Source: Eledone cirrhosa
Lineage: Eukaryota
DNA: 64,000 nucleotides
Direction: 5' to 3'
Assembly: GCA_964016885.1 (NCBI GenBank)
Contig: OZ024741.1
Location: 11,346,001 to 11,410,000, forward strand
Under the pieces are notes generated by a model, which did no database searches, had not been told where the DNA came from, and saw nothing but the letters and a program-made list of their open reading frames with translations. Positions 6,701-60,203 of this stretch are shown one piece after another. The position numbers and the translations under genes were made by a program. The first letter of the stretch is position 1; each line of letters starts with the position of its first letter.

Positions 6701-6782
6701 TTTTGGATAGACTTGCCGTTTTGGGACTAACAATCCATTTTTGAACTAGCAATCCATTTTAGGACTAGAAATCGATTTTTGA
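3717..6782. repeat. Diverged ~19-bp minisatellite (GGACTAGCAATCCATTTTT; variant GGACAAACTCGCCATTTTT)
   Basis: ACTAGC recurs at 5741, 5760 and 5779 (19-bp period); ~160 units with variable T-run length. Confidence 0.95.
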
Positions 6783-11352: not shown

Positions 11353-12198
11353 TAATAATAATAATAATAATTTCCTTATTGGTCACAAGGGCCGACATAT
11401 AGAGGACATTACAAAAGGCAAGGACAATGGACGGGTATACAATGAAATTGAGTAAACAATATAAAAACAATAACAATAAACAATATAATTATAACAATAC
11501 AAATTTCACAATGGGGGGGTACCACTCAGTGGTGACCCAGGAACCCCACCAGTTTTAAACCATCCAACGCTCCAAGAGCACCCAAGGAGGGCACCCTTCT
11601 CCTCTCCAAATCAGCCAACCTACAGGCACATGGTCAGAGTAAGCCCATTCACATGAGCCATCCACACAGCATTCACCCACCTTTTAGCAAATGTAATGGT
11701 GGGGGGGGCAGCACTTCTCTCTCCACCCTCACCTTCCTTTTCAAAGTGGAATTTGAAAAAGTTGATGAGGGATTAGTGGAAGAGAAAAGTGTCTGTCTTA
11801 AGTCCTTTCAACATAGTCCACCAAACAACCTCTATCACTACAGCCACCAGGCAGAGGAAAACTGCCTGCCTATCTCGGTCAAAAGAAGGTGGTGGTGTGA
11901 TCATCACTATGGACTAGGTTGATAGTGAAGATCACTCCACCAACAGACCTGTTCAACACATGATAACAGCTGTTCAACATAACTCCACAAGTCAGTAATG
12001 CACTAACACTGGGTGAGTGCATGCATCTCGGACAGGTCCATCTGACAGCACTTCCATGCCTGTACAGTTTATCTTGGGCTAGCAGTGGCCCCTGGTAGCA
12101 CTGCCAATCAAGAGATTTCTGGAAGTTATCCTTAATCCTAGCTCAGAAGTCCTCCAGAACAGACTGGTAAGTTCGATTTCATCGACACCCTGAGCATC
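11353..12198 (-). mobile_element. Decayed L1/Tx1-type LINE 3' end
   Basis: Minus strand gives CPRC / HALTQC*CITDLWSYVEQLLS (zf-RVT-like) and QAVFLCLVAVVIEVVWWTMLKGLKTDTF; stops and frameshifts present; (TTA)n tail at 11353-11370. Confidence 0.7.
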
Positions 12199-12384
12199 TA
12201 CAAGAAAAGAAGAATATCAAGGCAAGTATTGCGGATATTACATCACCGTGGGACCAGAGGGTGAATGAGAAGGAAAATTGAGAAACACCAGAGGCTGAAG
12301 AGGGAAATCAGGAAACTGTGGAGAATCAGACATGTAGAAGTGGTACCGATTGTGGTTGGTGTACTGAGAGTAGTTAGTAGGTTA
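12199..12384 (+). mobile_element. R4/Dong-type non-LTR retrotransposon RLE fragment, left part
   Basis: IADITSPWDQRVNEKE /frameshift/ KIEKHQRLKREIRKLWRIRHVEVVPIVVGVLRVVS matches the D..VP.D....KE.EK..KY..L..EI..LW....V.VVPIVVG motif. Confidence 0.8.
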
Positions 12385-15300
12385 GACATGTAGTAGTGGT
12401 ACCGACTGAAGTTGGTACACCAGGAGTAGTTAGAAGGTTAGACATGTAGTAGTGGTACCGACTGTGGTTGGTACACTAGGAGTAGTTAGTAGGTTAGACA
12501 TGTAGTAGTGGTAGCAACTGTGGTTGGTACACTAGGAGTAGTTAGTAGGTTAGACATGTAGTTGTGGTACCAACTGTGGTTGGTGTACAGGGAGTAGTTA
12601 GTAGGTTAGACATGTAGTAGTGGTACCGACTGAAGTTGGTACACCAGGAGTAGTTAGAAGGTTAGACATGTAGTAGTGGTACCGACTGTGGTTGGTACAC
12701 TAGGAGTAGTTAGTAGGTTAGACATGTAATAGTGGTACCAACTATCGTTGGTACACTGGGAGTAGTTAGTAGGATAGACATGTAGTGGTGGTACCGACTG
12801 TGGTTGGTACACTGGGAGTAGTTAGTAGGTTAGACATGTAGTAGTGGTACCAACTGTGGTTGGTACACTAGGAGTAGTTAGTAGGATAGACATGTAGTAG
12901 TGGTACCAACTGTGGTTGGTACACTAGGAGTAGTTAGTAGGATAGACATGTAGTAGTGGTACCAACTGTGGTTGGTACACTAGGAGTAGTTAGTAGGTTA
13001 GACATATAGTAGTGGTACCAACTGTGGTTGATGTACTGGGAGTAGTTAGTAGGTTAGACATGTAGTAGTGGTACCAACTGTGGTTGATGTACTGGGAGTA
13101 GTTAGTAGGTTAGACATATAGTAGTGGTACCAACTGTGGTTGATGTACTGGGAGTAGTTAGTAGGTTAGACATGTAGTAGTGGTACCGACTGTGGTTGGT
13201 ACACTAGGAGTAGTAAGTAGGTTAGACATGTAGTAGTGGTACCGACTGTGGTTGGTACACTAGGAGTAGTTAGTAGGATAGACATGTAGTAGTGGTACCA
13301 ACTGTGGTTGGTACACTAGGAGTAGTTAGTAGGATAGACATGTAGTAGTGGTACCGACTGTGGTTGGTACACTAGGAGTAGTTAGTAGGTTAGACATGTA
13401 GTAGTGGTACCGACTGAGGTTGGTGTAATGGGAGTAGTTAGTAGGTTAGACATGTAGTAGTGGTACCAACTGTGGTTGGTGTACTGGGAGTAGTTAGTAG
13501 GTTAGACATGTAGTAGTGGTACCGACTGTGGTTGGTACACTGGGAGTAGTTAGTAGGTTAGACATGTAGTAGTGGTACCAACTGTGGTTGGTGTACTGGG
13601 AGTAGTTAGTAGGTTAGACATGTAGAAGTGGTACCAACTGTGGTTGGTGTACTGGGAGTAGTTAGTAGGTTAGACATGTAGAAGTGGTACCAACTGTGGT
13701 TGGTGTACTGGGAGTAGTTAGTAGGTTAGACATGTAGTAGTGGTACCAACTGTGGTTGGTGTACTGGGAGTAGTTAGTAGGTTAGACATGTAGTAGTGGT
13801 ACCAACTGTGGTTGGTACGCTAGGAGAAGTTAGTAGGTTAGACATGTAGTAGTGGTACCGACTGTAGTTGGTACACTGGAAGTAGTTAGTAGGTTAGACA
13901 TGTAGTAGTGGTACCGAATGTGGTTGGTACACTGGGAGTAGTTAGTAGGTTAGACATGTAGTAGTGGTACCGACTGTGGTTGGTACACTGGGAGTAGTTA
14001 GTAGGTTAGACATGTAGTAGTGGTACCAACTGTGGTTGGTGTACTGGGAGTTGTTAGTCGGTTAGACATGTAGTAGTGGTACCGACTGTGGTTGGTACAC
14101 TGGGAGTAGTTAGTAGGTTAGACATGTAGTAGTGGTACCGACTGTGGTTGGTACACTAGGAGTAGTTAGTAGGTTAGACATGTAGTAGTGGTACCGACTG
14201 TGGTTGGTACACTAGGAGTAGTTAGTAGGTTAGACATGTAGTAGTGGTACCAACAGTGGTTGGTACACTGGGAGTAGTTAGTAGGTTAGACATGTAGTAG
14301 TGGTACCGACTGTGGTTGGTGTACTGGGAGTAGTTAGTAGGTTAGACATGTAGTAGTGGTACCGACTGTGGTTGGTACACTGGGAGTAGTTAGTAGGTTA
14401 GACATGTAGTAATGGTACCGACTGTGGTTGGTACACTGGGAGTAGTTAGTAGGTTAGACATGTAGTAGTGGTACCGACTGTGGTTGGTACACTAGGAGTA
14501 GTTAGTAGGTTAGACATGTAGTAGTGGTACCGACTGTGGTTGGTACACTAGGAGTAGTTAGTAGGTTAGACATGTAGTAGTGGTACCGACTGTGGTTGGT
14601 GTACTGGGAGTAGTTAGTAGGTTAGACATGTAGTAGTGGTAACAACTGTGGTTGGTGTACTGGGAGTAGTTCGTAGGTTAGACATTTAGTAGTGGTACCG
14701 ACTGTAGTTGGTGTACTGGGAGTAGTTAGTAGGTTAGACATTTAGTAGTGGTACCGACTGTAGTTGGTGTACTGGGAGTAGTTAGTAGGTTAGATATTTA
14801 GTAATGGTACCGACTGTAGTTGGTGTACTGGGAGTAGTTAGTAGGTTAGACATGTAGTAGTGGTACCGACTGTGGTTGGTGTACTGGGAGTAGTTAGTAG
14901 GTTAGACATTTAGTAGTGGTACCGACTGTAGTTGGTGTACTGGGAGTAGTTAGTAGGTTAGACATCTAGTAGTGGTACCGACTGTGGTTGGTGTACTGGG
15001 AGTAGTTAGTAGGTTACACATGTAGTAGTGGTACCGACTGTGGTTGGTACACTGGGATTACTTAGTAGGTTAGACATGTAGAAGTGGTACCGACTGTAGT
15101 TGATACACTGGGAGTAGTTAGTAGGTTAGACATGTAGAAGTGGTACGGACTGTGGTTGGTACACTAGGAGTAGTTAGTAGGTTACACATGTAGTATTGGT
15201 ACCGACTGAGGTTGGTGAACTGGGAGTAGTTAGTAGGTTAGACATGTAGTAGTGGTACCAACTGTGGTTGGTGTACTGGGAGTAGTTAGTAGGATAGACA

Positions 15301-18300
15301 TGTAGTAGTGGTAACGACTGTGGTTGGTACACTGGAAGTAGTTAGTAGGTTAGACATGTAGTAGTGGTAACGACTGTGGTTGGTACACTGGAAGTAGTTA
15401 GTAGGTTAGACATGTAGTAGTGGTAACGACTGTGGTTGGTACACTGGAAGTAGTTAGTAGGTTAGACATGTAGTAGTGGTAACGACTGTGGTTGGTACAC
15501 TAGGAGTAGTTAGTAGGTTAGACATGTAGTAGTAGTACCAACTGTGGTTGGTACACTGGGAGTAGTTAGTAGGTTAGACATGTAGTAGTGGTACCGACTG
15601 TGGTTGGTACACTAGGAGTAGTTAGTAGGTTAGACATGTAGTAGTGGTACCGACTGAGGTTGGTGTACTGGGAGTAGTTAGTAGGTTAGACATTTAGTAG
15701 TGGTACCAACTGTGGTTGTTACACTGGGTGTAGTTAGTAGGTTAGACATGTAGTAGTGGTACCAACTGTGGCTGGTGTACTGGGAGTAGTTAGTAGGTTA
15801 GACATTTAGTAGTGGTACCAACTGTGGTTGGTGTACTGGGAGTAGTTAGTAGGTTAGACATGTAGTAGTGGTACCAACTGTGGTTGGTACACTAGGAGAA
15901 GTTAGTAGGTTAGACATGTAGTAGTGGTACCGACTGTAGTTGGTACACTGGAAGTAGTTAGTAGGTTAGACATGTAGTAGTGGTACCGACTGTGGTTGGT
16001 ACACTGGGAGTAGTTAGTAGGTTAGACATGTAGTAGTGGTACCGACTGTGGTTGGTACACTGGGAGTAGTTAGTAGGTTAGACATGTAGTAGTGGTACCG
16101 ACTGTGGTTGGTGTACTGGGAGTTGTTAGTCGGTTAGACATGTAGTAGTGGTACCAACTGTGGTTGGTACACTAGGAGTAGTTAGTAGGTTAGACATGTA
16201 ATAGTGGTACCAACTATCGTTGGTACACTGGGAGTAGTTAGTAGGATAGACATGTAGTTGTGGTAACGACTGTGGTTGGTACACTGGAAGTAGTTAGTAG
16301 GTTAGACATGTAGTAGTGGTACCAACTGTGGTTGGTACACTAGGAGAAGTTAGTAGGTTAGACATGTAGTAGTGGTACCGACTGTAGTTGGTACACTGGA
16401 AGTAGTTAGTAGGTTAGACATGTAGTAGTGGTACCGACTGTGGTTGGTACACTGGGAGCAGTTAGTAGGTTAGACATGTAGTAGTGGTACCGACTGTGGT
16501 TGGTACACTGGGAGTAGTTAGTAGGTTAGACATGTAGTAGTGGTACCAACTGTGGTTGGTACACTAGGAGAAGTTAGTAGGTTAGACATGTAGTAGTGGT
16601 ACCGACTGTAGTTGGTACACTGGAAGTAGTTAGTAGGTTAGACATGTAGTAGTGGTACCGACTGTGGTTGGTACACTGGGAGCAGTTAGTAGGTTAGACA
16701 TGTAGTAGTGGTACCGACTGTGGTTGGTACACTGGGAGTAGTTAGTAGGTTAGACATGTAGTAGTGGTACCGACTGTGGTTGGTGTACTGGGAGTTGTTA
16801 GTCGGTTAGACATGTAGTAGTGGTACCGACTGTGGTTGGTACACTGGGAGTAGTTAGTAGGTTAGACATGTAGTAGTGGTAACAACTGTGGTTGGTGTAC
16901 TGGGAGTAGTTCGTACGTTAGACATTTAGTAGTGGTACCGACTGTAGTTGGTGTACTGGGAGTAGTTAGTAGGTTAGACATGTAGTAGTGGTACCAACTG
17001 TAGTTGGTGTACTGGGAGTAGTTAGTAGGTTAGATATTTAGTAATGGTACCGACTGTAGTTGGTGTACTGGGAGTAGTTAGTAGGTTAGACATGTAGTAG
17101 TGGTACCGACTGTGGTTGGTGTACTGGGAGTAGTTAGTAGGTTAGACATTTAGTAGTGGTACCGACTGTAGTTGGTGTACTGGGAGTAGTTAGTAGGTTA
17201 GATATTTAGTAATGGTACCGACTGTAGTTGGTGTACTGGGAGTAGTTAGTAGGTTAGACATGTAGTAGTGGTACCGACTGTGGTTGGTGTACTGGGAGTA
17301 GTTAGTTGGTTAGACATTTAGTAGTGGTACCGACTGTAGTTGGTGTACTGGGAGTAGTTAGTAGGTTAGACATCTAGTAGTGGTACCGACTGTGGTTGGT
17401 GTACTGAGAGTAGTTAGTAGGTTAGACATGTAGTAGTGGTACCGACTGAAGTTGGTGTACTGGGAGTAGTTAGTAGGTTACATATGTAGTAGTGGTACCG
17501 ACTGTGGTTGGTACACTGGGAGTAGTTAGTAGGTTAGACATGTAGTAGTGGTAGCAACTGTGGTTGATACACTAGGAGTAGTTAGTAGGTTAGACATGTA
17601 GTTGTGGTACCAACTGTGGTTGGTGTACAGGGAGTAGTTAGTAGGTTAGACATGTAATAGTGGTACCAACTATCGTTGGTACACTAGGAGTAGTTAGTAG
17701 GTTAGACATGTAGTAGTGGTACCAACTGTGGTTGGTACACTGGGAGTAGTTAGTAGGTTAGACATGTAGTAGTGGTACTGACTGTGGTTGGTACACTGGG
17801 AGTAGTTAGTAGGATAGACATGTAGTTGTGGTACCAACTGTGGTTGGTACACTAGGAGTAGTTAGTAGGTTAGATATGTAGTAGTGGTACCGACTGTGGT
17901 TGGTACACTGGGAGTAGTTAGTAGGTTACATATGTAGTAGTGGTACCGACTGTGGTTGGTACACTAGGAGTAGTTTGTAGGATAGACATGTAGTTGTGGT
18001 ACCGACTGTAGTTGGTACACTGGGAGTAGTTAGTAGGTTAGACATGTAGTAGTGGTACCGACTGTGGTTGGTACACTAGGAGTAGTTTGTAGGTTAGACA
18101 TGTGGTAGTGGTACCGAATGTGGTTGGTACACTGGGAGTAGTTAGTAGGTTAGACATGTAGTAGTGGTACCGACTGTGGTTGGTACAATAGGAGTAGTTA
18201 GTAGGTTAGACATGTAGTAGTGGTACCGACTGAGGTTGGTGTACTGGGAGTAGTTAGTAGGTTAGACATGTAGTAGTGGTACCAACTGTGGTTGGTGTAC

Positions 18301-21300
18301 TGGGAGTAGTTAGTAGGTTAGACATTTAGTAGTGGTACCAACTGTGGTTGGTGTACTGGGAGTAGTTAGTAGGTTAGACATGTAGTAGTGGTACCAACTG
18401 TGGTTGGTACACTAGGAGAAGTTAGTAGGTTAGACATGTAGTAGTGGTACCGACTGTAGTTGGTACACTGGAAGTAGTTAGTAGGTTAGACATGTAGTAG
18501 TGGTACCGACTGTGGTTGGTACACTGGGAGTAGTTAGTAGGTTAGACATGTAGTAGTGGTACCGACTGTGGTTGGTACACTGGGAGTAGTTAGTAGGTTA
18601 GACATGTAGTAGTGGTACCGACTGTGGTTGGTGTACTGGGAGTTGTTAGTCGGTTAGACATGTAGTAGTGGTACCGACTGTGGTTGGTACACTGGGAGTA
18701 GTTAGTAGGTTAGACATGTAGTAGTGGTAACAACTGTGGTTGGTGTACTGGGAGTAGTTCGTAGGTTAGACATTTAGTAGTGGTACCGACTGTAGTTGGT
18801 GTACTGGGAGTAGTTAGTAGGTTAGACATTTAGTAGTGGTACCGACTGTAGTTGGTGTACTGGGAGTAGTTAGTAGGTTAGATATTTAGTAATGGTACCG
18901 ACTGTAGTTGGTGTACTGGGAGTAGTTAGTAGGTTAGACATGTAGTAGTGGTACCGACTGTGGTTGGTGTACTGGGAGTAGTTAGTAGGTTAGACATTTA
19001 GTAGTGGTACCGACTGTAGTTGGTGTACTGGGAGTAGTTAGTAGGTTAGACATCTAGTAGTGGTACCGACTGTGGTTGGTGTACTGGGAGTAGTTAGTAG
19101 GTTACACATGTAGTAGTGGAACCGACTGTGGTTGGTACACTGGGAGTACTTAGTAGGTTAGACATGTAGAAGTGGTACCGACTGTAGTTGATACACTGGG
19201 AGTAGTTAGTAGGTTAGACATGTAGAAGTGGTACGGACTGTGGTTGCTACACTAGGAGTAGTTAGTAGGTTACACATGTAGTATTGGTACCGACTGTGGT
19301 TGGTGTACTGGGAGTGGTTAGTAGGTTAGACATGTAGTAGTGGTACCGACTTTGGTTGGTGTATTGGGAGTACTTAGTAGGTTAGACATGTAGTAGTGGT
19401 ACCGACTGTAGTTGGTACACTAGGAGTAGTTAGTAGGTTAGACATGTAGTAGTGGTACCGACTGTGGTTGGTGTACTGGGAGTATTTAGTAGGTTAGATA
19501 TGTAGTAGTGGTACCGACTGTGGTTGGTACACTAGGAGTAGTTAGTAGGTTACACATGTAGTATTGGTACCGACTGTGGTTGGTGTATTGGGAGTACTTA
19601 GTAGGTTAGACATGTAGTAGTGGTACCGACTGTAGTTGGTACACTAGGAGTAGTTAGTAGGTTAGACATGTAGTAGTGGTACCGACTGTGGTTGGTGTAC
19701 TGGGAGTATTTAGTAGGTTAGATATGTAGTAGTGGTACCGACTGTGGTTGGTACACTGGGAGTAGTTAGTAGGTTAGACATGTAGTAGTGGTACCAACTG
19801 TGGTTGGTACACTGGGAGTAGTTAGTAGGTTAGACATGTAGTAGTGGTACCGACTGTGGTTGGTACACTGGGAGTAGTTAGTAGGTTAGACATGTAGTAG
19901 TGGTACAAACTGTGGTTGGTACACTAGGAGTAGTTAGTAGGTTAGACATGTAGTAGTGGTACCGACTGAGGTTGGTGAACTGGGAGTAGTTAGTAGGTTA
20001 GACATGTAGTAGTGGTACCAACTGTGGTTGGTGTACTGGGAGTAGTTAGTAGGATAGACATGTAGTTGTGGTAACGACTGTGGTTGGTACACTGGAAGTA
20101 GTTAGTAGGTTAGACATGTAGTAGTGGTAACGACTGTGGTTGGTACACTAGGAGTAGTTAGTAGGTTAGACATGTAGTAGTAGTACCAACTGTGGTTGGT
20201 ACACTGGAAGTAGTTAGTAGGTTAGACATGTAGTAGTGGTAACGACTGTGGTTGGTACACTGGGAGTAGTTAGTAGGTTAGACATGTAGTAGTGGTACCA
20301 ACTGTGGTTGGTACACTGGAAGTAGTTAGTAGGTTAGACATGTAGTAGTGGTACCAACTGTGGTTGGTACACTGGAAGTAGTTAGTAGGTTAGACGTGTA
20401 ATAGTGGTACCGACTATGGTTGGTACACTGGAAGTAGTTAGTAGGTTAGACATGTAGAAGTGGTAACGACTGTGGTTGGTACACTGGGAGTAGTTAGTAG
20501 GTTAGACATGTAATAGTGGTACCGACTATGGTTGGTACACTAGGAGTAGTTAGTAGGTTAGACATGTAGAAGTGGTACCGACTGTGGTTGGTACACTGGA
20601 AGTAGTTAGTAGGTTAGACATGTAGAAGTGGTAACGACTGTGGTTGGTACACTGGGAGTAGTTAGTAGGTTAGACATGTAGTAGTGGTACCAACTGTGGT
20701 TGGTACACTAGGAGTAGTTAGTAGGTTAGACATGTAGTAGTGGTACCAACTGTGGTTGGTACACTGGGAGTAGTTAGTAGGTTAGACATGTAGTAGTGGT
20801 ACCGACTGTGGTTGGTACACTGGGAGTACTTAGTAGGTTAGACATGTAGAAGTGGTACCGACTGAAGTTGATACACTGGGAGTAGTTAGTAGGTTAGACA
20901 TGTAGAAGTGGTACGGACTGTGGTTGGTACACTAGGAGTAGTTAGTAGGTTACACATGTAGTATTGGTACCGACTGTGGTTGGTGTACTGGGAGTGGTTA
21001 GTAGGTTAGACATGTAGTAGTGGTACCGACTTTGGTTGGTGTATTAGGAGTACTTAGTAGGTTAGATATGTAGTAGTGGTACCGACTGTGGTTGGTACAC
21101 TGGGAGTAGTTAGTAGGTTAGACATGTAGTAGTGGTACCAACTGTGGTTGGTACACTGGGAGTAGTTAGTAGGTTAAACATGTAGTAGTGGTACCAACTG
21201 TGGTTGGTACACTGGGAGTAGTTAGTAGGTTAGACATGTAGTAGTGGTAACAACTGTGGTTGGTACACTGGGAGTAGTTAATAGGTTAGACATGTAGTAG

Positions 21301-24300
21301 TGGTACCAACTGTGGTTGGTACACTAGGAGTAGTTAGTAGGTTAGACATGTAGTAGTGGTACCAACTGTGGTTGGTGTACTGGGAGTAGTTAGTAGGATA
21401 GACATGTAGTTGTGGTACCGACTGTGGTTGGTACACTGGAAGTAGTTAGTAGGTTAGACATGTAGAAGTGGTAACGACTGTGGTTGGTACACTGGGAGTA
21501 GTTAGTAGGTTAGACATGTAGAAGTGGTAACGACTGTGGTTGGTACACTGGGAGTAGTTAGTAGGTTAGACATGTAGTAGTGGTACCAACTGTGGTTGGT
21601 ACACTAGGAGTAGTTAGTAGGTTAGACATGTAGTAGTGGTACCAACTGTGGTTGGTACACTGGGAGTAGTTAGTAGGTTAGACATGTAGTAGTGGTACCG
21701 ACTGTGGTTGGTACACTGGAAGTAGTTAGTAGGTTAGACATGTAGAAGTGGTAACGACTGTGGTTGGTACACTGGGAGTAGTTAGTAGGTTAGACATGTA
21801 GTAGTGGTACCAACTGTGGTTGGTACACTGGAAGTAGTTAGTAGGTTAGACATGCAGTAGTGGTACCAACTGTGGTTGGTACACTAGGAGTAGTTAGTAG
21901 GTTAGACATGTAGTAGTGGTACCAACTGTGATTGGTACACTGGAAGTAGTTAGTAGGTTAGACATGTAGTAGTGGTACCAACTGTGGTTGGTACACTGGG
22001 AGTAGTTAGTAGGTTAGACATGTAGTAGTGGTACCAACTGTGGTTGGTACACTAGGAGTAGTTAGTAGGTTAGACATGTAGTAGTGGTACCAACTGTGGT
22101 TGGTACACTGGGAGTAGTTAGTAGGTTAGACATGTAGAAGTGGTACCGACTGAAGTTGATACACTGGGAGTAGTTAGTAGGTTAGACATGTAGAAGTGGT
22201 ACGGACTGTGGTTGGTACACTAGGAGTAGTTAGTAGGTTACACATGTAGTATTGGTACCGACTGTGGTTGGTGTACTGGGAGTGGTTAGTAGGTTAGACA
22301 TGTAGTAGTGGTACCGACTTTGGTTGGTGTATTAGGAGTACTTAGTAGGTTAGACATGTAGTAGTGGTACCAACTGTGGTTGGTACACTAGGAGTAGTTA
22401 GTAGGTTAGACATGTAGTAGTGGTACCAACTGTGGTTGGTGTACTGGGAGTAGTTAGTAGGTTAGACATGTAATAGTGGTACCGACTATGGTTGGTGTAC
22501 TGGGAGTAGTTAGTAGGTTAGATATATAGTAGTGGTACCGACTGTGGTTGGTACACTGGGAGTAGTTAGTAGGTTAGACATGTAGTAGTGGTACCAACTG
22601 TGGTTGGTACACTAGGAGTAGTTAGTAGGTTAGACATGTAGTAGTGGTACCGACTTTGGTTGGTGTATTAGGAGTACTTAGTAGGTTAGACATGTAGTAG
22701 TGGTACCAACTGTGGTTGGTACACTAGGAGTAGTTAGTAGGTTAGACATGTAGTAGTGGTACCGACTGTGGTTGGTACACTGGGAGTAGTTAGTAGGTTA
22801 GACATGTAATAGTGGTACCGACTATGGTTGGTGTACTGGGAGTAGTTAGTAGGTTAGATATATAGTAGTGGTACCGACTGTGGTTGGTACACTGGAAGTA
22901 GTTAGTAGGTTAGACGTGTAATAGTGGTACCGACTATGGTTGGTACACTGGAAGTAGTTAGTAGGTTAGACATGTAGAAGTGGTAACGACTGTGGTTGGT
23001 ACACTGGGAGTAGTTAGTAGGTTAGACATGTAATAGTGGTACCGACTATGGTTGGTACACTAGGAGTAGTTAGTAGGTTAGACATGTAGAAGTGGTACCG
23101 ACTGTGGTTGGTACACTGGGAGTAGTTAGTAGGTTAGACATGTAGTAGTGGTACCAACTGTGGTTGGTACACTGGAAGTAGTTAGTAGGTTAGACATGTA
23201 GTAGTGGTACCAACTGTGGTTGGTACACTGGAAGTAGTTAGTAGGTTAGACGTGTAATAGTGGTACCGACTATGGTTGGTACACTGGAAGTAGTTAGTAG
23301 GTTAGACATGTAGAAGTGGTAACGACTGTGGTTGGTACACTGGGAGTAGTTAGTAGGTTAGACATGTAATAGTGGTACCGACTATGGTTGGTACACTAGG
23401 AGTAGTTAGTAGGTTAGACATGTAGAAGTGGTACCGACTGTGGTTGGTACACTGGAAGTAGTTAGTAGGTTAGACATGTAGAAGTGGTAACGACTGTGGT
23501 TGGTACACTGGGAGTAGTTAGTAGGTTAGACATGTAGTAGTGGTACCAACTGTGGTTGGTACACTAGGAGTAGTTAGTAGGTTAGACATGTAGTAGTGGT
23601 ACCAACTGTGGTTGGTACACTGGGAGTAGTTAGTAGGTTAGACATGTAGTAGTGGTACCGACTGTGGTTGGTACACTGGGAGTACTTAGTAGGTTAGACA
23701 TGTAGAAGTGGTACCGACTGAAGTTGATACACTGGGAGTAGTTAGTAGGTTAGACATGTAGAAGTGGTACGGACTGTGGTTGGTACACTAGGAGTAGTTA
23801 GTAGGTTACACATGTAGTATTGGTACCGACTGTGGTTGGTGTACTGGGAGTGGTTAGTAGGTTAGACATGTAGTAGTGGTACCGACTTTGGTTGGTGTAT
23901 TAGGAGTACTTAGTAGGTTAGATATGTAGTAGTGGTACCGACTGTGGTTGGTACACTGGGAGTAGTTAGTAGGTTAGACATGTAGTAGTGGTACCAACTG
24001 TGGTTGGTACACTGGGAGTAGTTAGTAGGTTAAACATGTAGTAGTGGTACCAACTGTGGTTGGTACACTGGGAGTAGTTAGTAGGTTAGACATGTAGTAG
24101 TGGTAACAACTGTGGTTGGTACACTGGGAGTAGTTAATAGGTTAGACATGTAGTAGTGGTACCAACTGTGGTTGGTACACTAGGAGTAGTTAGTAGGTTA
24201 GACATGTAGTAGTGGTACCAACTGTGGTTGGTGTACTGGGAGTAGTTAGTAGGATAGACATGTAGTTGTGGTACCGACTGTGGTTGGTACACTGGAAGTA

Positions 24301-48300: not shown

Positions 48301-51300
48301 AGGTTAGACATGTAGTAGTGGTACCGACTGTGGTTGGTGTACTGGGAGTAGTTAGTAGGATAGACATGTAGAAGTGGTACCAACTGTGGTTGGTGTACTG
48401 GGAGTAGTTAGTAGCTTAGACATGTAATGGTGGTACCCACTGTGGTTGGTGTACTGGGAGTAGTTAGTAGCTTAGACATGTAGAAGTGGTACCGACTGTG
48501 GTTGGTGTACTGGGAGTAGCTAGTAGGTTAGACATGTAGTAGTGGTACCGACTGTGGTTAGTGTACTGGGAGTAGTTAGTAGGTTAGACATGTAGAAGTG
48601 GTACCGACTGTGGTTGGTACACTGGGAGTAGTTAGTAGGTTAGACATGTAGTAGTGGTACCGACTGTGGTTGGTACACTGGGAGTAGTTATTAGTAGGTT
48701 AGACATGTAGTAGTGGTACCGACTGTGGTTAGTGTACTGGGAGTAGTTAGTAGGTTAGACATGTAGAAGTGGTACCGACTGTGGTTGGTGTACTGGGAGT
48801 AGTTAGTAGGTTAGACATGTAGTAGTGGTACCGACTGTGGTTGGTACACTAGCAGTAGTTAGTAGGTTAGACATGTAGTAGTGGTACCGACTGTGGTTGG
48901 TACACTGGGAGTAGTTTTTAGGTTAGACATGTAGTAGTGGTACCAACAGTGGTTGGTGTACTGGGAGTAGTTAGTAGGTTAGACATGTAGTAGTGGTACC
49001 GACTGTGGTTGGTACACTAGGAGTAGTTAGTAGGTTAGACATGTAGTAGTGGTACCGACTGTAGTTGGTACACTGGGAGTAGTTAGTAGGTTAGACATGT
49101 AGTAGTGGTACCGACTGTGGTTGGTACACTAGTAGTAGTTAGTAGGTTAGACATGTAGTAGTGGTACCGACTGTGGTTGGTGTACTGGGAGTAGTTATTA
49201 GTAGGTTAGACATGTAGTAGTGGTACAGACTGTGGTTGGTGTACTGGCAATAGTTAGCAGGTTAGACATGTAGTAGTGGTACCAATTGTGGTTGGTACAC
49301 TGGGAGTAGTTAGTAGGTTAGACATGTTGTAGTGGTACCGACTGTGGTTGGTACACTGGGAGTAGTTAGTAGGTTAGACATGTAGTAGTGGTTTCGACTG
49401 TGGTTGGTGTACTGGGAGTAGTTAGTAGGTTAGACATGTAGAAGTGGTACCAATTGTGGTTGGTACACTGGGAGTAGTTAGTAGGTTAGACATGCAGTAG
49501 TGGTTTCGACTGTGGTTGGTGTACTGGGAGTAGTTAGTAGGTTAGACATGTAGTAGTGGTACCGACTGTGGTTGGTACACTGGGAGTAGTTAGTAGGTTA
49601 GACATGTAGTAGTGGTACCGACTGTGGTTGGTACACTGGGAGTAGTTAGTAGGTTAGACATGCAGTAGTGGTTTCGACTGTGGTTGGTGTACTGGGAGTA
49701 GTTAGTAGGTTAGACATGTAGTAGTGGTACCGACTGTGGTTGGTACACTGGGAGTAGTTAGTAGGTTAGACATGTAGTAGTGGTACCGACTGTGGTTGGT
49801 GTACTGGGAGTAGTTAGTAGGTTAGACATGTAGTAGTGGTACCAACTGTGGTTGGTACACTGGGAGTAGTTAGTAGGTTAGACATGTAGTAGTGGTACCG
49901 ACTGTGGTTGGTGTACTGGGAGTAGTTAGTAGGTTAGACATGTAGTAGTGGTACCGACTGTGGTTGGTACACTGGGAGTAGTTAGTATGTTAGACCTGTA
50001 GTAGTGGTACCGACTGTGCTTGGTGTACTGGGAGTAGTTAGTAGGTTAGACCTGTAGTAGTGGTACCGACTGTGGTTGGTGTACTGGGAGTAGTTAGTAG
50101 GTTAGACATGTAGTAGTGGTACCAACTGTGGTGTTGGTACACTAGGAGTAGTTAGTAGGTTAGACATGTAGTAGTGGTACCAACTGTGGTTGGTACACTG
50201 GGAGTAGTTAGTAGGTTAGACATGTAGTGGTGGTACCGACTGTGGTTGGTACACTGGGAGTAGTTAGTAGGTTAGACATGTAGTAGTGGTACCAACTGTG
50301 GTTGGTACACTGGGAGTAGTTAGTAGGTTAGACATGTAGTGGTGGTACCGACTGTGGTTGGTACACTGGGAGTAGTTAGTAGGTTAGACATGTAGTAGTG
50401 GTACCAACTGTGGTTGGTACACTGGTAGTAGTTAGTAGGTTAGACATGTAGTAGTGGTACCAACTGTGGTTGTTACACAGGGTGTAGTTAGTAGGTTAGA
50501 CATGTAGTGGTGGTACCGACTGTGGTTGGTACACTGGGAGTAGTTAGTAGGTTAGACATGTAGTGGTGGTACCGACTGTGGTTGGTACACTGGGAGTAGT
50601 TAGTAGGTTAGACATGTAGTAGTGGTACCGACTGTGCTTGGTGTACTGGGAGTAGTTAGTAGGTTAGACCTGTAGTAGTGGTACCGACTGTGGTTGGTGT
50701 ACTGGGAGTAGTTAGTAGGTTAGACATGTAGTAGTGGTACCAACTGTGGTGTTGGTACACTAGGAGTAGTTAGTAGGTTAGACATGTAGTAGTGGTACCG
50801 ACTGAGGGTGGTGTACTGGGAGTAGTTATTAGTAGGTTAGACATGTAGTAGTGGTACCGACTGTGGTTGGTGTACTGGGAGTAGTTATTAGGTTAGACAT
50901 GTAGTAGTGGTACCCACTGTGGTTGGTGTACTGGGAGTAGTTAGTAGGTTAGACATGTAGAAGTGGTACCGACTGTGGTTGGTACACTGGGAGTAGTTAG
51001 TAGGTTAGACATGTAGTAGTGGTAACAACTGTGGTTGGTACACTAGGAGTAGTTAGTAGGTTAGACATGTAGTAGTGGTACCGACTGAGGTTGGTGTACT
51101 GGGAGTAGTTATTAGTAGGTTAGACATGTAGTAGTGGTACCGACTGTGGTTCGTGTACTGGGAGTAGTTAGTAGGTTAGACATGTAGTAGTGGTAACGAC
51201 TGTGGTTGGTGTACTGGTAGTAGTTAGTAGTTTAGACATGTAATAGTGGTACCGACTATGGTTGGTACACTAGGAGTAGTTAGTAGGTTAGACATGTAGT

Positions 51301-54300
51301 AGTGGTACCGACTATGGTTGGTACACTAGGAGAAGTTAGTAGGTTAGACATGTAGTAGTGGTACCGACTGTGGTTGGTACACTGGAAGTAGTTAGTAGGT
51401 TAGACCTGTAGTAGTGGTACCGACTGTGGTTGGTACACTGGGAGTAGTTAGTAGGTTAGACATGTAGTAGTGGTACCGACTGTGGTTGGTGTACTGGGAG
51501 TTGTTAGTCGGTTAGACATGTAGTAGTGGTACCGACTGTGGTTGGTACACTGGGAGTAGTTATTAGTAGGTTAGACATGTAGAAGTGGTACCGACTGTGG
51601 TTGGTGTACTGGGAGTAGTTAGTAGGTTAGACATGTAGTAGTGGTACCAACTGTGGTTGGTGTACTGGGAGTAGTTAGTAGGTTAGACATGTAGTAGTGG
51701 TACCGACTGTGGTTGGTGTACTGGGAGTAGTTAGTAGGATAGACATGTAGAAGTGGTACCAACTGTGGTTGGTGTACTGGGAGTAGTTAGTAGCTTAGAC
51801 ATGTAGTAGTGGTACCGACTGTGGTTGGTACACTGGGAGTAGTTAGTAGCTTAGACATGTAGTAGTGGTACCGACTGTGGTTAGTGTACTGGGAGTAGTT
51901 AGTAGGTTAGACATGTAGAAGTGGTACCGACTGTGGTTGGTACACTGGGAGTAGTTAGTAGGTTAGACATGTAGTAGTGGTACCGACTGTGGTTGGTACA
52001 CTGGGAGTAGTTATTAGTAGGTTAGACATGTAGTAGTGGTACCGACTGTGGTTAGTGTACTGGGAGTAGTTAGTAGGTTAGACATGTAGAAGTGGTACCG
52101 ACTGTGGTTGGTGTACTGGGAGTAGTTAGTAGGTTAGACATGTAGTAGTGGTACCGACTGTGGTTGGTACACTAGGAGTAGTTAGTAGGTTAGACATGTA
52201 GTAGTGGTACCGACTGTGGTTGGTACACTGGGAGTAGTTTTTAGGTTAGACATGTAGTAGTGGTACCAACAGTGGTTGGTGTACTGGGAGTAGTTAGTAG
52301 GTTAGACATGTAGTAGTGGTACCGACTGTGGTTGGTACACTAGGAGTAGTTAGTAGGTTAGACATGTAGTAGTGGTACCGACTGTAGTTGGTACACTGGG
52401 AGTAGTTAGTAGGTTAGACATGTAGTAGTGGTACCGACTGTGGTTAGTGTTCTGGGAGTAGTTAGTAGGTTAGACATGTAGAAGTGGTACCGACTGTGGT
52501 TGGTACACTGGGAGTAGTTAGTAGGTTAGACATGTAGTAGTGGTACCGACTGTGGTTGGTACACTGGGAGTAGTTATTAGTAGGTTAGACATGTAGTAGT
52601 GGTACCGACTGTGGTTAGTGTACTGGGAGTAGTTAGTAGGTTAGACATGTAGAAGTGGTACCGACTGTGGTTGGTGTACTGGGAGTAGTTAGTAGGTTAG
52701 ACATGTAGTAGTGGTACCGACTGTGGTTGGTACACTAGGAGTAGTTAGTAGGTTAGACATGTAGTAGTGGTACCGACTGTGGTTGGTACACTGGGAGTAG
52801 TTTTTAGGTTAGACATGTAGTAGTGGTACCAACAGTGGTTGGTGTACTGGGAGTAGTTAGTAGGTTAGACATGTAGTAGTGGTACCGACTGTGGTTGGTA
52901 CACTAGGAGTAGTTAGAAGGTTAGACATGTAGTAGTGGTACCGACTGTAGTTGGTACACTGGGAGTAGTTAGTAGGTTAGACATGTAGTAGTGGTACCGA
53001 CTGTGGTTGGTACACTAGTAGTAGTTAGTAGGTTAGACATGTAGTAGTGGTACCGACTGTGGTTGGTGTACTGGGAGTAGTTATTAGTAGGTTAGACATG
53101 TAGTAGTGGTACAGACTGTGGTTGGTGTACTGGCAATAGTTAGTAGGTTAGACATGTAGTAGTGGTACCAATTGTGGTTGGTACACTGGGAGTAGTTAGT
53201 AGGTTAGACATGTAGTAGTGGTACCGACTGTGGTTGGTACACTGGGAGTAGTTAGTAGGTTAGACATGTAGTAGTGGTTTCGACTGTGGTTGGTGTACTG
53301 GGAGTAGTTAGTAGGTTAGACATGTAGTAGTGGTACCGACTGTGGTTGGTGTACTGGGAGTAGTTAGTAGGTTAGACATGTAGTAGTGGTACCGACTGTG
53401 GTTGGTACACTGGGAGTAGTTAGTAGGTTAGACATGTAGTAGTGGTACCGACTGTGGTTGGTGTACTGGGAGTAGTTAGTAGGTTAGACATGTAGTAGTG
53501 GTACCGACTGTGGTTGGTGTACTGGGAGTAGTTAGTTGGTTAGACATGTAGTAGTGGTACCGACTGTGGTTGGTGTACTGGGAGTAGTTAGTAGGTTAGA
53601 CCTGTAGTAGTGGTACCGACTGTGGTTGGTACACTGGGAGTAGTTAGTAGGTTAGACATGTAGTAGTGGTACCGACTGTGGTTGGTGTACTGGGAGTAGT
53701 TAGTAGGTTAGACCTGTAGTAGTGGTACCGACTGTGGTTGGTACACTGGAAGTAGTTAGTATGTTAGACATGTAGTAGTGGTACCGACTGAGGTTGGTGT
53801 ACTGGGAGTAGTTAGTAGGTTAGACATGTAGTAGTGGTACCAACTGTGGTTGGTGTACTGGGAGTAGTTAGTAGGTTAGACCTGTAGTAGTGGTACCGAC
53901 TGTGGTTGGTGTACTGGGAGTAGTTAGTAGGTTAGACATGTAGTAGTGGTACCGACTGTGGTTGGTACACTGGGAGTAGTTAGTAGGTTAGATATATAGT
54001 AGTGGTACCGACTGTGGTTGGTGTACTGAGAGTAGTTAGTCGGTTAGATATATAGTAGTGGTACCGACTGTGGTTGGTACACTGGGAGTAGTTAGTAGGT
54101 TAGACATGTAGTAGTGGTACCAACTGTGGTTGGTACACTGGAAGTAGTTAGTAGGTTAGACATGTAGAAGTGGTACCGACTGTGGTTGGTGTACTGGGAG
54201 TAGTTAGTAGGTTAGACATGTAGTAGTGGTACCAACTGTGGTTGGTACACTGGGTGTAGTTAGTAGGTTAGACATGTAGTAGTGGTACCAACTGTGGTTG

Positions 54301-57300
54301 GTACACTGGGAGTAGTTAGTCGGTTAGACATGTAGTAGTGGTACCAACTGTGGTTGGTACACTGGGTGTAGTTAGTAGGTTAGATATATAGTAGTGGTAC
54401 CGACTGTGGTTGGTACACTGGGAGTAGTTAGTAGGTTAGATATATAGTAGTGGTACCGACTGTGGTTGGTGTACTGGGAGTAGTTAGTAGGTTAGACATG
54501 TAGTAGTGGTACCAACTGTGGTTGGTACACTGGGAGTAGTTAGTAGGTTAGACATGTAGTAGTGGTACCAACTGTGGTTGGTACACTGGAAGTAGTTAGT
54601 AGGTTAGATATATAGTAGTGGTACCGACTGTGGTTGGTGTACTGGGAGTAGTTAGTAGGTTAGACATGTAGAAGTGGTAACGACTGTGGTTGGTACACTG
54701 GGAGTAGTTAGTAGGTTAGACATGTAGAAGTGGTACCAACTGTGGTTGGTACACTGGGTGTAGTTAGTAGGTTAGACATGTAGTAGTGGTACCAACTGTG
54801 GTTGGTACACTGGGAGTAGTTAGTAGGTTAGACATGTAGTGGTGGTACCGACTGTGGTTGGTACACTGGGAGTAGTTAGTAGGTTAGACATGTAGTAGTG
54901 GTACCAACTGTGGTTGGTACACTGGGAGTAGTTAGTAGGTTAGACATGTAGTAGTGGTACCAACTGTGGTTGGTACACTGGGTGTAGTTAGTAGGTTAGA
55001 CATGTAGTAGTGGTACCGACTGTGGTTGGTACGCTGGGAGTAGTTAGTAGGTTAGACATGTAGTAGTGGTACCAACTGTGATTGGTACACTGGGAGTAGT
55101 TAGTAGGTTAGACATGTAGTGGTGCTACCGACTGTGGTTGGTACACTGGGAGTAGTTAGTAGGTTAGACATGTAGTAGTGGTACCAACTGTGGTTGGTAC
55201 ACTGGGTGTAGTTAGTAGGTTAGACATGTAGTAGTGGTACCGACTGTGGTTGGTACACTGGGAGTAGTTAGTAGGTTAGACATGTAGTAGTGGTACCAAC
55301 TGTGGTTGGTACACTGGGAGTAGTTAGTAGGTTAGACATCTAGTAGTGGTACCGACTGTGGTTGGTACACTGGGAGTAGTTAGTAGGTTAGACATGTAGT
55401 AGTGGTACCGACTGTGGTTGGTGTACTGGGAGTAGTTAGTAGGTTAGACATGTAGTAGTGGTACCAACTGTGGTTGGTGTACTGGGAGTAGTTAGTAGGT
55501 TAGACATGTAGTAGTGGTACCGACTGTGGTTGGTGTACTGGGAGTAGTTAATAGGTTAGACATGTAGTAGTGGTACCGACTGAGGTTGGTGTACTGGGAG
55601 TAGTTAGTAGGTTAGACATGTAGTAGTGGTACCGACTGTGGTTGGTGTACTGGGAGTAGTTAGTAGGTTAGACATGTAGTAGTGGTACCAACTGTGGTTG
55701 GTGTACTGGGAGTAGTTAGTAGGTTAGACATGTAGTAGTGGTACCGACTGTGGTTGTTGCACTGGGAGTAGTTAGTAGGTTAGACATGTAGTAGTGGTAC
55801 CAACTGTGGTTGGTACACTGGGAGTAGTTAGTAGGTTAGACATGTAGTAGTGGTACCGACTGTGGTTGGTGTACTGGGAGTTGTTAGTCGGTTAGACATG
55901 TGGTAGTGGTACCGACTGTGGTTGGTACACTGGGAGTAGTTATTAGTAGGTTAGACATGTAGAAGTGGTACCGACTGTGGTTGGTGTACTGGGAGTAGTT
56001 AGTAGGTTAGACATGTAGTAGTGGTACCAACTGTGGTTGGTGTACTGGGAGTAGTTAGTAGGTTAGACATGTAGTAGTGGTACCGACTGTGGTTGGTGTA
56101 CTGGGAGTAGTTAGTAGGATAGACATGTAGAAGTGGTACCGACTGTGGTTGGTGTACTGGGAGTAGTTAGTAGGTTAGACATGTAGTAGTGGTACCGACT
56201 GTGGTTGGTACACTAGGAGTAGTTAGTAGGTTAGACATGTAGTAGTGGTACCGACTGTGGTTGGTACACTAGGAGTAGTTTTTAGGTTAGACATGTAGTA
56301 GTGGTACCAACAGTGGTTGGTGTACTGGGAGTAGTTAGTAGGTTAGACATGTAGTAGTGGTACCGACTGTGGTTGGTACACTAGGAGTAGTTAGTAGGTT
56401 AGACATGTAGTAGTGGTACCGACTGTGGTTGGTACACTGGGAGTAGTTAGTAGGTTAGACATGTAGTAGTGGTACCGACTGTGGTTGGTACACTAGTAGT
56501 AGTTAGTAGGTTAGACATGTAGTAGTGGTACCGACTGTGGTTAGTGTACTGGGAGTAGTTAGTAGGTTAGACATGTAGAAGTGGTACCGACTGTGGTTGG
56601 TACACTGGGAGTAGTTAGTAGGTTAGACATGTAGTAGTGGTACCGACTGTGGTTGGTACACTGGGAGTAGTTATTAGTAGGTTAGACATGTAGTAGTGGT
56701 ACCGACTGTGGTTAGTGTACTGGGAGTAGTTAGTAGGTTAGACATGTAGAAGTGGTACCGACTGTGGTTGGTGTACTGGGAGTAGTTAGTAGGTTAGACA
56801 TGTAGTAGTGGTACCGACTGTGGTTGGTACACTAGGAGTAGTTAGTAGGTTAGACATGTAGTAGTGGTACCGACTGTGGTTGGTACACTAGGAGTAGTTT
56901 TTAGGTTAGACATGTAGTAGTGGTACCAACAGTGGTTGGTGTACTGGGAGTAGTTAGTAGGTTAGACATGTAGTAGTGGTACCGACTGTGGTTGGTACAC
57001 TAGGAGTAGTTAGTAGGTTAGACATGTAGTAGTGGTACCGACTGTAGTTGGTACACTGGGAGTAGTTAGTAGGTTAGACATGTAGTAGTGGTACCGACTG
57101 TGGTTGGTACACTAGTAGTAGTTAGTAGGTTAGACATGTAGTAGTGGTACCGACTGTGGTTGGTGTACTGGGAGTAGTTATTAGTAGGTTAGACATGTAG
57201 TAGTGGTACCGACTGTGGTTGGTGTACTGGCAATAGTTAGTAGGTTAGACATGTAGTAGTGGTACCAATTGTGGTTGGTACACTGGGAGTAGTTAGTAGG

Positions 57301-59426
57301 TTAGACATGTAGTAGTGGTACCGACTGTGGTTGGTACACTGGGAGTAGTTAGTAGGTTAGACATGTAGTAGTGGTACAGACTGTGGTTGGTGTACTGGCA
57401 ATAGTTAGTAGGTTAGACATGTAGTAGTGGTACCAATTGTGGTTGGTACACTGGGAGTAGTTAGTAGGTTAGACATGTAGTAGTGGTACCGACTGTGGTT
57501 GGTGTACTGGCAATAGTTAGTAGGTTAGACATGTAGTAGTGGTACCAATTGTGGTTGGTACACTGGGAGTAGTTAGTAGGTTAGACATGTAGTAGTGGTA
57601 CCGACTGTGGTTGGTACACTGGGAGTAGTTAGTAGGTTAGACATGTAGTAGTGGTACAGACTGTGGTTGGTGTACTGGCAATAGTTAGTAGGTTAGACAT
57701 GTAGTAGTGGTACCAATTGTGGTTGGTACACTGGGAGTAGTTAGTAGGTTAGACATGTAGTAGTGGTACCGACTGTGGTTGGTGTACTGGGAGTAGTTAG
57801 TAGGTTAGACATGTAGTAGTGGTACCAACTGTGGTTGGTACACTGGAAGTAGTTAGTAGGTTAGACATGTAGTAGTGGTACCGACTGTGGTTGGTACACT
57901 GGGAGTAGTTAGTAGGTTAGACATGTAGTAGTGGTACCGACTGTGGTTGGTACACTGGGAGTAGTTAGTAGGTTAGACATGTAGTAGTGGTACCGACTGT
58001 GGTTGGTGTACTGGGAGTAGTTAGTAGGTTAGACATGTAGTAGTGGTACCAACTGTGGTTGGTACACTAGGAGTAGTTAGTAGGTTAGACATGTAGTAGT
58101 GGTACCGACTGTGGTTGGTGTACTGGGAGTAGTTAGTAGGTTAGACATGTAGTAGTGGTACCGACTGTGGTTGGTACACTGGAAGTAGTTAGTATGTTAG
58201 ACCTGTAGTAGTGGTACCGACTGTGGTTGGTGTACTGGGAGTAGTTAGTAGGTTAGACATGTAGTGGTGGTACCGACTGTGGTTGGTACACTGGGAGTAG
58301 TTAGTAGGTTAGAAATCTAGTAGTGGTACCGACTGTGGTTGGTGTACTGGGAGTAGTTAGTAGGTTAGACATGTAGTAGTGGTACCGACTGTGGTTGGTA
58401 CACTGGGAGTAGTTAGTAGGTTAGACATGTAGTAGTGGTACCGACTGTGGTTGGTACACTGGGAGTAGTTAGTAGGTTAGACATGTAGTGGTGGTACCGA
58501 CTGTGGTTGGTACACTGGGAGTAGTTAGTAGGTTAGACATGTAGTAGTGGTACCAACTGTGGTTGGTACACTGGGAGTAGTTAGTAGGTTAGACATGTAG
58601 TAGTGGTACCAACTGTGGTTGGTACACTGGGTGTAGTTAGTAGGTTAGACATGTAGTAGTGGTACCGACTGTGGTTGGTACACTGGGAGTAGTTAGTAGG
58701 TTAGACATGTAGTAGTGGTACCAACTGTGATTGGTACACTGGGAGTAGTTAGTAGGTTAGACATGTAGTGGTGCTACCGACTGTGGTTGGTACACTGGGA
58801 GTAGTTAGTAGGTTAGACATGTAGTAGTGGTACCAACTGTGGTTGGTACACTGGGTGTAGTTAGTAGGTTAGACATGTAGTAGTGGTACCGACTGTGGTT
58901 GGTACACTGAGAGCAGTTAGTAGGTTAGACATGTAGTAGTGGTACCAACTGTGGTTGGTACACTGGGAGTAGTTAGTAGGTTAGACATCTAGTAGTGGTA
59001 CCGACTGTGGTTGGTACACTGGGAGTAGTTAGTAGGTTAGACATGTAGTAGTGGTACCGACTGTGGTTGGTGTACTGGGAGTAGTTAGTAGGTTAGACAT
59101 GTAGTAGTGGTACCAACTGTGGTTGGTGTACTGGGAGTAGTTAGTAGGTTAGACATGTAGTAGTGGTACCGACTGTGGTTGGTGTACTGGGAGTAGTTAG
59201 TAGGTTAGACATGTAGTAGTGGTACCGACTGTGGTTGGTACACTGGGAGTAGTTAGTAGGTTAGACATGTAGTAGTGGTACCGACTGTGGTTGGTACACT
59301 GGGAGTAGTTAGTAGGTTAGACATTTAGTAGTGGTACCGACTGTGGTTGGTACACTGGGAGTAGTTAGTAGGTTAGCTATGTAGTAGTGGTACCGATTGT
59401 GGTTGGTGTACTCGGAGTCGTTAGTA
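12329..59426. repeat. 47-kb satellite array, 56-bp monomer (GACATGTAGTAGTGGTACCGACTGTGGTTGGTACACTGGGAGTAGTTAGTAGGTTA), ~840 copies
   Basis: Head-to-tail period of 56 (e.g. 12441 to 12497); 59-bp, 57-bp and 40-bp variants occur after 27449; no inversion or foreign insertion noticed. Confidence 0.99.
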
Positions 59427-59646
59427 AAAGGTTCGATGCTTGGCTTGAGAAGCTAGGAATTACCATCAGGACAGGATTATTGCAGAAAACAGTCTTGTTA
59501 GGAACAGCAACGATTCTAAGAAGTGTTTTGGAAAGTTGAAGGAGAAGAAATGACCCAAAGGAACTTTGGTCATTGGTTATGCCTTTCTCTTTTGGTAGTG
59601 TTCGTGTAACATCTGCCAGAGCAAAAACATTACGAATAATGATAAT
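59381..59646 (+). mobile_element. R4/Dong-type retrotransposon C-terminus, 3'UTR and (AAT)n tail, right part
   Basis: VVVVPIVVGVLGVVSKRFDAWLEKLGITIRTGLLQKTVLLGTATILRSVLES* (TGA 59537-59539); 3'UTR stem-loop at ~59549-59574; AATAATGATAAT tail. Confidence 0.85.
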
Positions 59647-59972: not shown

Positions 59973-60203
59973 TGGTAAAAAGAGGATATTTATATATTAT
60001 CATCATCGTTTAACATTCATTTACCACACTAGCATGGGTAAGAAGGGTGGTCTCTTTGGAAGAGATCAGGTCAGAGGACTGTGTAAGCAAAACACAGTCC
60101 CCTGACCTGATCTCTCCCAAAGGGACAGCCCGTCTTACCCATGCTAGTGTAGTAAATGAATGTTAAACGATGATGATGATATATAAATATCCTCTTTTTA
60201 CCA
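59973..60203. repeat. Fold-back inverted repeat, ~112-bp arms, 7-nt loop
   Basis: TGGTAAAAAGAGGATATTTATAT...GGACTGTGT-AAGCAAA-ACACAGTCC...ATATAAATATCCTCTTTTTACCA; roughly 8 mismatches. Confidence 0.93.

Follow-up and report, generated by a model that had tools for sequence, protein, structure and literature searches.

The question raised by the 64,000-nucleotide stretch of the Eledone cirrhosa genome considered here (contig OZ024741.1, positions 11,346,001 to 11,410,000, i.e., G000:C2:11346001-11410000 of the 3.0-Gb assembly; hereafter, the window) is how a 47-kb tandem array came to lie inside the coding region of a long interspersed nuclear element (LINE). An initial annotation, made from the letters alone, had proposed that this satellite was born in place, within the endonuclease-coding region of an R4/Dong retrotransposon whose two flanks still show the ancestral state. 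The same repeat, with the same junction, was found in the same codons of different LINE copies at at least 25 loci on 13 contigs, and its units turned out to be mostly younger than the copies which host them. We consider it probable that one repeat lineage was copied into homologous LINE relics, mainly by ectopic gene conversion, and then expanded locally; the array of the window was likely copied in this way from another array into an old LINE copy and expanded in place.

The array (12328..59426, forward strand, as are all features of the window given below) was recognized by Tandem Repeats Finder (TRF) as a single array of period 56, and its segmentation gave 840 units: 785 of 56 bp, 45 of 59 bp, five of 40 bp, four of 58 bp and one terminal. 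As a long head-to-tail run of homogenised monomers (47 kb, 840 units) it is satellite DNA, its 829 full inner units comprising 224 distinct sequences at a mean pairwise distance of 0.073. It interrupts the endonuclease-coding 3' end of a dead LINE, in register inside one copy, and the monomer consists of the RHVEVVPIVVGALGAVSKR codons of that element, as had been proposed. The 5' flank of the relic (12203..12327; 5'-truncated endonuclease-region codons) ends in translation with ...KREIRKLWRIRHVEVVPIVVGVLRVVSR and is 83% identical to the plain, i.e., array-free, copy L010 over 12203-12380. The 3' flank reads VVVVPIVVGVLGVVSKRFDAWLEKLG...RSVLES and is composed of the last 52 codons of the open reading frame (ORF) with the stop (59381..59539), a 3' untranslated region collinear with that of plain copies (59540..59634) and a short AAT-type tail (59635..59646), such a tail following 46 of the 50 plain copies whose match reaches the 3' end. 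Both translations agree with those reported earlier, each being 81% identical to the open C-terminal frame of L010, and both flanks align in order to the 19 plain copies L002-L020 of a single LINE family: the right one at 81-86% identity to all 19, the left one, or the first unit, at 75-88% to the adjacent upstream part of the same copies, partially in some of them. The flanks had been described as intact; they are indeed both present and in register, but the host is already broken ahead of the array by an 8-bp deletion after 12278 and by stops in all three frames. The described shortening of the parental stretch at the junction is real as well, with the correction that this stretch in plain copies measures 59 bp, from AGA(C) to (A/G)GA(T), and that the 56-bp unit is devoid of 3 bp near its end.

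Amplification in place, about 840-fold, holds good in the window, where local growth is visible as an exact block of 46 units (2.6 kb) present in two copies 51 units apart (~20280-22855 and 23136-25711, coordinates derived from unit numbers); a 97-unit exact block was found in another array, C18a, both being features of the assembly as it stands. The duplicated block of the window may have resulted either from unequal exchange in recent times or from an error of assembly. The search for a fixed higher-order period in this array revealed only irregular block duplications. These exact multi-kb blocks, together with the fact that none of the listed read-derived contigs spans the junction between array and flank, are what could be said for the units having been collapsed, or cross-polished between loci, in the assembly. 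Such an explanation of the whole pattern is scarcely credible, as the spectrum of variants differs from array to array, reads would have no difficulty in spanning arrays of 2-10 units, and in contigs of runs X1 and X2, which belong to one sample that is possibly the source, the unit is covered thousands of times more deeply than the single-copy flank, although depth does not equal copy number. Positions 12044-12324, which take in the left flank up to 12324, were also matched without differences by a contig of one sequencing sample. In runs X4 and X5, which come from other organisms, the LINE piece and the unit were uncovered at 90% likeness, which is not evidence of absence. No RNA data set was listed as containing the sequence.

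The anatomy described above recurs in the genome. A 34-base exact junction motif gave 601 forward and 48 reverse matches genome-wide, 363 of them inside the window, and a junction pattern allowing two mismatches returned ten loci, nine of which were known before. Mapping of the monomer thus left the array real but by no means unique: the 25 loci (21 found first, of which C9b was completed later, and four found later) are a lower bound, 30 matches of one junction-pattern search being unlisted. The number of units varies from one full unit with a part of another (C21b) through 2, 3, 3, 3, 3, 5, 5, 7, 10, 21, 25, 27, 28, 31, 35, 44, 47, 49, 72, 145, 148 and 234 to the 840 of the window and ~1,036 in the largest array, whereas most family copies found by similarity have a single unit. 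At least one LINE flank in register was found at all 25 loci and both flanks at 19 (one 5' flank being only ~20 bp long); three loci have no 5' flank and three have no 3' flank. The series in the genome extends from dimers to arrays of 58 kb, and the 21 arrays found first sum to only 156 kb. Eighteen of these 21 (those on contigs of known size), including four on contigs of 379-443 Mb, lie at most 17 Mb from a contig end; the best-matching plain copies, which were selected by similarity, lie mostly deep inside large contigs. As separate observations, the largest array contains an inverted block of ~45 units (G000:C18:13414868-13417460) and is also rich in 16-bp-short or 72-bp periods, and in the hosts C23b and C23c a part of the LINE 3' flank is tandemly duplicated behind the array (L113, G000:C23:23846527 and below; L166).

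Could the satellite nevertheless have been born in the window's own copy, any other loci being derived from it? Both flanks are there in register, the two terminal units have 20G, 22T, 34T and 43T in common, and some host was necessarily the first. However, the repeat recurs at no fewer than 24 further loci, in other LINE copies but at an identical position, with the same anatomy at 19 of the 25, and the units of the window, with 10T, 22C, 43T and the 3-bp deletion, rank with the most derived ones. No inner unit has the parental 3 bp, and the 59-bp units of this array carry a TTA duplication instead; 22C occupies 97% of the inner units. Even the terminal units have already acquired 43T, which occurs in 2 of 51 plain copies: the first (12328..12383) retains the older alleles 10A and 22T, with 34T, 43T and the 3-bp deletion already present, while the last (59375..59433), which continues into the host ORF, retains the parental 3 bp and 22T. 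Units of the ancestral 59-bp length dominate other arrays, i.e., C9b (216 of 234), C2b (45 of 49) and C21 (21 of 28), and C9c also belongs here. Finally, the next letters of the window's host are CGA and not the AGA needed for the junction microhomology. We regard the origin of the satellite in the window as highly improbable, and neither the birthplace nor the readable ancestral state assigned to this locus is supported.

The unit alleles point to one lineage. The junction is common to all arrays, and the 3-bp deletion with 43T to most of them; the TAC/TGT pair at unit positions 33-34 segregates in nearly all larger arrays. The combination of 10T and 22C is present in the window, C1, C3, C18a, C25a and C10b, and the window and C1 have identical lists of majority changes in their units. 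At eight loci positions 5-6 read CG or CA in the first unit but TG in those that follow it; the later units, therefore, were not copied from the host's own unit. These data bear on another explanation, according to which the stretch is a duplication hot spot, prone to tandem duplication by its AGA microhomology and a weak hairpin, so that each array arose independently in place and the window is one birthplace of many. A LINE copy with a dimer (L153, G000:C1:1377168-1377238) that has the same junction, intact CpGs and a different 3-bp loss is possibly an independent duplication of this kind, or else an early branch, and the unit can form a hairpin of -6.1 kcal/mol. Against it, the arrays share alleles which are rare in plain copies (43T as given above, 22C in 2 of 49, 10T in 1 of 49), as well as the deletion and the polymorphism, their units are free of host-level divergence, first and later units differ at the eight loci mentioned, and the hairpin is not significant in comparison with shuffled sequences (z=-1.3); independent origin of the arrays appears quite improbable. 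Expansion driven by the hairpin was considered separately and rejected: the relation of array size to folding energy is weak (rho -0.47, p=0.03 on one strand and p=0.19 on the other, for 21 non-independent arrays), 22C adds no strength to the fold, and a common unit of the window does not differ significantly from shuffles, a plain unit folding better. A further observation concerns allele 38A of the window array, which is nearly confined to the TAC background (146 vs 6 units), this background also folding the better hairpin; the association may reflect linkage or palindrome correction.

To estimate the age of the units relative to their hosts, 52 plain copies were aligned and divergence was measured from the majority letter of each column. 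For the units, at 46 stable positions, it amounted to 0.043, against 0.090 in the host flanks, being lower in the units of 16 of the 18 arrays (Wilcoxon p=2.5e-4), while plain copies gave 0.059 for both the same unit positions and the flank. Exact search patterns favour well-preserved units, hence the comparison was repeated on 33 pattern-free positions, with four shared variable sites excluded, for the 13 loci found by those patterns. The units then diverged by 0.029 and the flanks by 0.087, with 11 of the 13 loci in agreement (p=0.001) and a value of 0.063 for plain units; both exceptions form the sister pair C11a/b (C10b entered the first test with 2 units and the second with 19, C10b and C18b being partly mis-phased). 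Among the four loci found after the hypothesis had been set, the three with inner units all agree, the unit and flank values being 0.007 and 0.075, 0.000 and 0.069, and 0.000 and 0.082; zero divergence of inner units was found even at loci of 3 and 5 units. In a simulation of arrays inherited since insertion, none of 200 runs at each of three homogenisation rates came down to the observed sum of 0.301 for 14 loci (simulated mean ~1.18); its premise is that a neutral unit drifts from the ancestor at the flank rate, whatever the homogenisation within the array, the sisters C11b and C9c and C21b, which has no inner unit, were omitted, and arrays were limited to 60 units. Pairwise comparison agrees: over 91 pairs of arrays the units differ by 0.100 and the flanks by 0.195, against 0.162 and 0.141, respectively, in plain copies, and the units of the window and C1 are 0.075 apart, close to the 0.073 within the window array, with flanks at 0.184. 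Since the units are younger than the flanks in these tests and younger than in simulated inheritance, sequence comparison lets us say firmly that sequence moved between loci long after the insertion of the hosts. Co-conversion tracts beside the arrays were sought as well and are not supported: on the left, host divergence is slightly lower within 30 bp of the array than farther away (0.065 vs 0.089-0.097), and on the right there is no drop at all.

By which route the loci were seeded is a less firm matter than the movement itself. Conversion is supported by the absence of any diagnostic flank allele common to the hosts, by the occurrence of hosts, ~20% apart from each other, on both haplotypes of the family, by shuffle-like clustering and by the young loci of 3 and 5 units. 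On the flank tree, which comprised 19 of the 21 hosts (C20 and C23b were left out, having fewer than 150 filled columns, and a spurious 41%-divergent left alignment of C9b was dropped), the host label changes 15 times against 16.9 for shuffles, 73 of 500 shuffles being as low; its shape is that of a star, 10 of the 68 inner branches being starred and the bootstrap not settled. The competing route is retrotransposition in trans: a non-autonomous LINE lineage with a short array would have seeded the loci, followed by local expansion and later homogenisation between loci.

Several results weigh against conversion and mostly speak for this route. A single host clade was not rejected by the approximately unbiased (AU) test (p-AU 0.30; p=0.58 for a subset of six hosts), although the star-like tree leaves the test little power. 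The left-flank allele 294A occurs in 10 of 13 hosts of the first set and 10 of 41 plain copies (uncorrected p=0.002), and in one of four loci found later; rare flank alleles are shared more by pairs of hosts than by hosts and plain copies (0.54 vs 0.14 on the left and 0.49 vs 0.19 on the right, per 100 columns), a comparison in which both the way of defining "rare" and the presence of sister pairs are confounding factors. Sister hosts do exist (C11a/b, C8a/b, C18a/C10b/C18b and, by eye, C9b/C9c and C21b/C23c), because of which the loci are not independent, and the units of C11a/b are more diverged than their flanks. The three arrays without a 5' LINE flank are as expected of 5'-truncated retrotransposition, C1, C9b and C23b starting inside or at the array with the 3' end kept, and a related, apparently young family with intact full-length frames (1,134-1,141 amino acids) could mobilise passengers, a pattern of carriage known for Ogre elements (PMC7004042). 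In the comparison within one assembly, moreover, no empty orthologous allele was seen. Yet without later exchange the units delivered by retrotransposition should match the age of the flanks, which they do not, inner units being undiverged even at loci of 3 and 5 units; the hosts lie on both family haplotypes; and the three loci which are devoid of the 3' flank instead are not a direct product of retrotransposition. Delivery in trans is therefore viewed here as a possible but doubtful main route, and both routes, conversion and carriage by the element, may have acted.

For ectopic gene conversion as the main route, the following course of events could be envisaged. In one of the copies, a tandem duplication would have arisen of the 59 bp between two short AGA words, with the loss of 3 bp and a few substitutions coming later. 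Another family copy, broken in the corresponding stretch, would then have been repaired from an array-bearing copy or from an excised circle, the homology of unit and LINE flank guiding the repair, so that units were written in and the host retained most of its own flanks. Local growth by block duplication, from a few to ~1,000 units, is the step seen directly as a pattern. Exchange between arrays presumably continues, so that the newer 10T and 22C have come to occupy five arrays, each on a different contig, and are also present in one more, with the older 22T kept in the two end units of the window array despite its 22C interior. We are somewhat inclined to see here a homing-like satellite: a repeat derived from an endonuclease-coding stretch that, without any enzyme of its own, would use homologous repair to invade whichever copies of its parent LINE survive, the relics presetting new satellite sites and newer variants sweeping between chromosomes.

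The identity of the host family follows from several features. The motif RRPDIVVV...VDIASPWD lies in the open C-terminal frame of L010, and its extended form RRPDIVVV...VDIASPWD...KY in P0001 constitutes a C-terminal endonuclease motif of the PD-(D/E)xK-like kind; in P0003 the corresponding residues can be aligned to RKPDL...DV...EK..HY of the R2 protein, with a weak domain score of 16 bits. A CCHC-type zinc knuckle precedes the endonuclease (CRVC...HIISE / CRLC...HIICEC in L014 and L015, CRMC...HILSEC in P0003). The database relative P0003, 77% identical to the C-terminus of L010 and not the truncated host itself, contains the reverse transcriptase (RT) domain PF00078, its best solved match being the R2 protein (E=4e-25). 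The full-length relatives P0004 and P0009 are single proteins of 1,136 and 1,133 amino acids, 63% and 58% identical to P0001, with PF00078 as the only domain, i.e., one long ORF without an apurinic/apyrimidinic endonuclease (APE), which again describes relatives and not the host. The C-terminus alone gave nothing significant in Pfam, and no informative names occur among the 120 listed homologues or five clusters. The motif of the host family appears to resemble that of Dong/Rex6 elements. Judged by its sequence, the host family is of the restriction-like endonuclease (RLE) type and likely belongs to the Dong/R4 clade, because of the motif, the zinc knuckle, the R2-related RT, the single-protein relatives, the AAT tail and the targeting of TAA repeats described for Dong elements (PMC3812793). 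An AAT run at the 5' end of the match occurs in 5 of 49 plain copies, but many of these ends only mark where the yardstick copy stops. In the 150 matches scored out of 41,015 candidates, no frame of the host family exceeded 315 amino acids, and the related family with full-length frames is 49% alike; its many similar copies and frames of up to 1,141 amino acids suggest a young family. One of its members, with a 974-amino-acid open frame (RT, zinc knuckle and RLE-like end; L112:1-2925, G000:C21:23907001-23909925), lies ~1.1 kb upstream of an array.

The R2-related RT, C-terminal zinc knuckle, RLE-like motif and AAT tail of the host family are as described for R4/Dong-type RLE elements (PMC4640811, PMC3812793), although the relevant passage of PMC3812793 places Dong among "APE-type" elements, unlike the RLE-type anatomy found here. 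Dong-R4 LINEs are reported to be abundant and partly recent in octopus genomes (PMC13282606, PMC8967140), and the word "satellite" is absent from the main text of both papers. Satellites derived from transposable elements, including those related to LINE ORFs, are well documented (PMC9659126); the chicken HinfI/CR1 and Phodopus PROsat/L1 pairs treated there likewise relate a monomer to LINE coding sequence, but by similarity of the monomer, whereas here a size series is found in register inside host copies. The Rsp-like satellite of Drosophila simulans and D. mauritiana, which spread into 1.688 clusters and for which interlocus gene conversion or reintegration of extrachromosomal circular DNA was proposed, comes close in that young near-identical units occupy distant loci inside older homologous sequence and then expand locally (PMC7403614). 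In the Drosophila case, however, the repeat landed in a different satellite, to which microhomology joined it, and did so on a single chromosome; in Eledone cirrhosa the sites of arrival are the very codons from which the repeat derives, within dead LINE copies scattered over 13 contigs, and the register is kept in every case. As with the Ogre-derived satellites of Lathyrus sativus, many short arrays and few greatly expanded ones lie in a retrotransposon (PMC7004042), here of 1 to ~1,036 units; but there the elements have long terminal repeats and carry the arrays as a part of themselves, while in the present case it is the ORF of a non-LTR element that is interrupted, most family copies found by similarity are single-unit and the host flanks are older than the units. 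The maize CRM1TR/CRM4TR repeats are also of retrotransposon origin, and gene conversion with CRM1 sequence was raised for a second locus; they differ in that CRM1TR is described from two loci 1.4 Mb apart with little movement (PMC3648361), against at least 25 loci with haplotypes shared across contigs. An open-literature search of titles and abstracts, with subscription journals and supplements (possible repeat libraries) outside it, found no description of arrays in register in many LINE copies, or of this repeat.

The routes by which satellites reach new chromosomes are usually inferred without knowledge of the pre-insertion site or the ancestral monomer, both of which are readable in this case: the repeat has landed in LINE relics that can be dated one by one, its 59-bp parental sequence is preserved in plain copies, of which 52 were aligned, and the arrays come in all sizes. 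It is in this respect that the set of loci is more interesting than the single array, as it offers direct tests of models of satellite spread; carriage by the element, insertion through conversion or circles, and repeated birth could be told apart with population assemblies at these loci. If conversion is the true route, dead transposon copies would constitute a map of future satellite sites. The repeat makes up a tiny fraction of the genome, and nothing suggests a function.

As to the surroundings of the array, the left part of the window is crowded with other tandem arrays (1-2300, 3301-3704, 3710-6781, 9039-9378 and 10366-10735, with periods of 11, 3, 19, 30 and 61 bp), the 61-bp unit resembling a dispersed repeat found also at G000:C1:204049-204389. 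Immediately upstream of the host LINE, positions 11620-12185 contain a fragment of another high-copy repeat, which contigs of organisms B and C cover too. Downstream of the array, positions 59996-60182 probably represent an inverted repeat, since 59996-60039 and 60137-60180 are both matched by one and the same outside sequence, but in opposite orientations.

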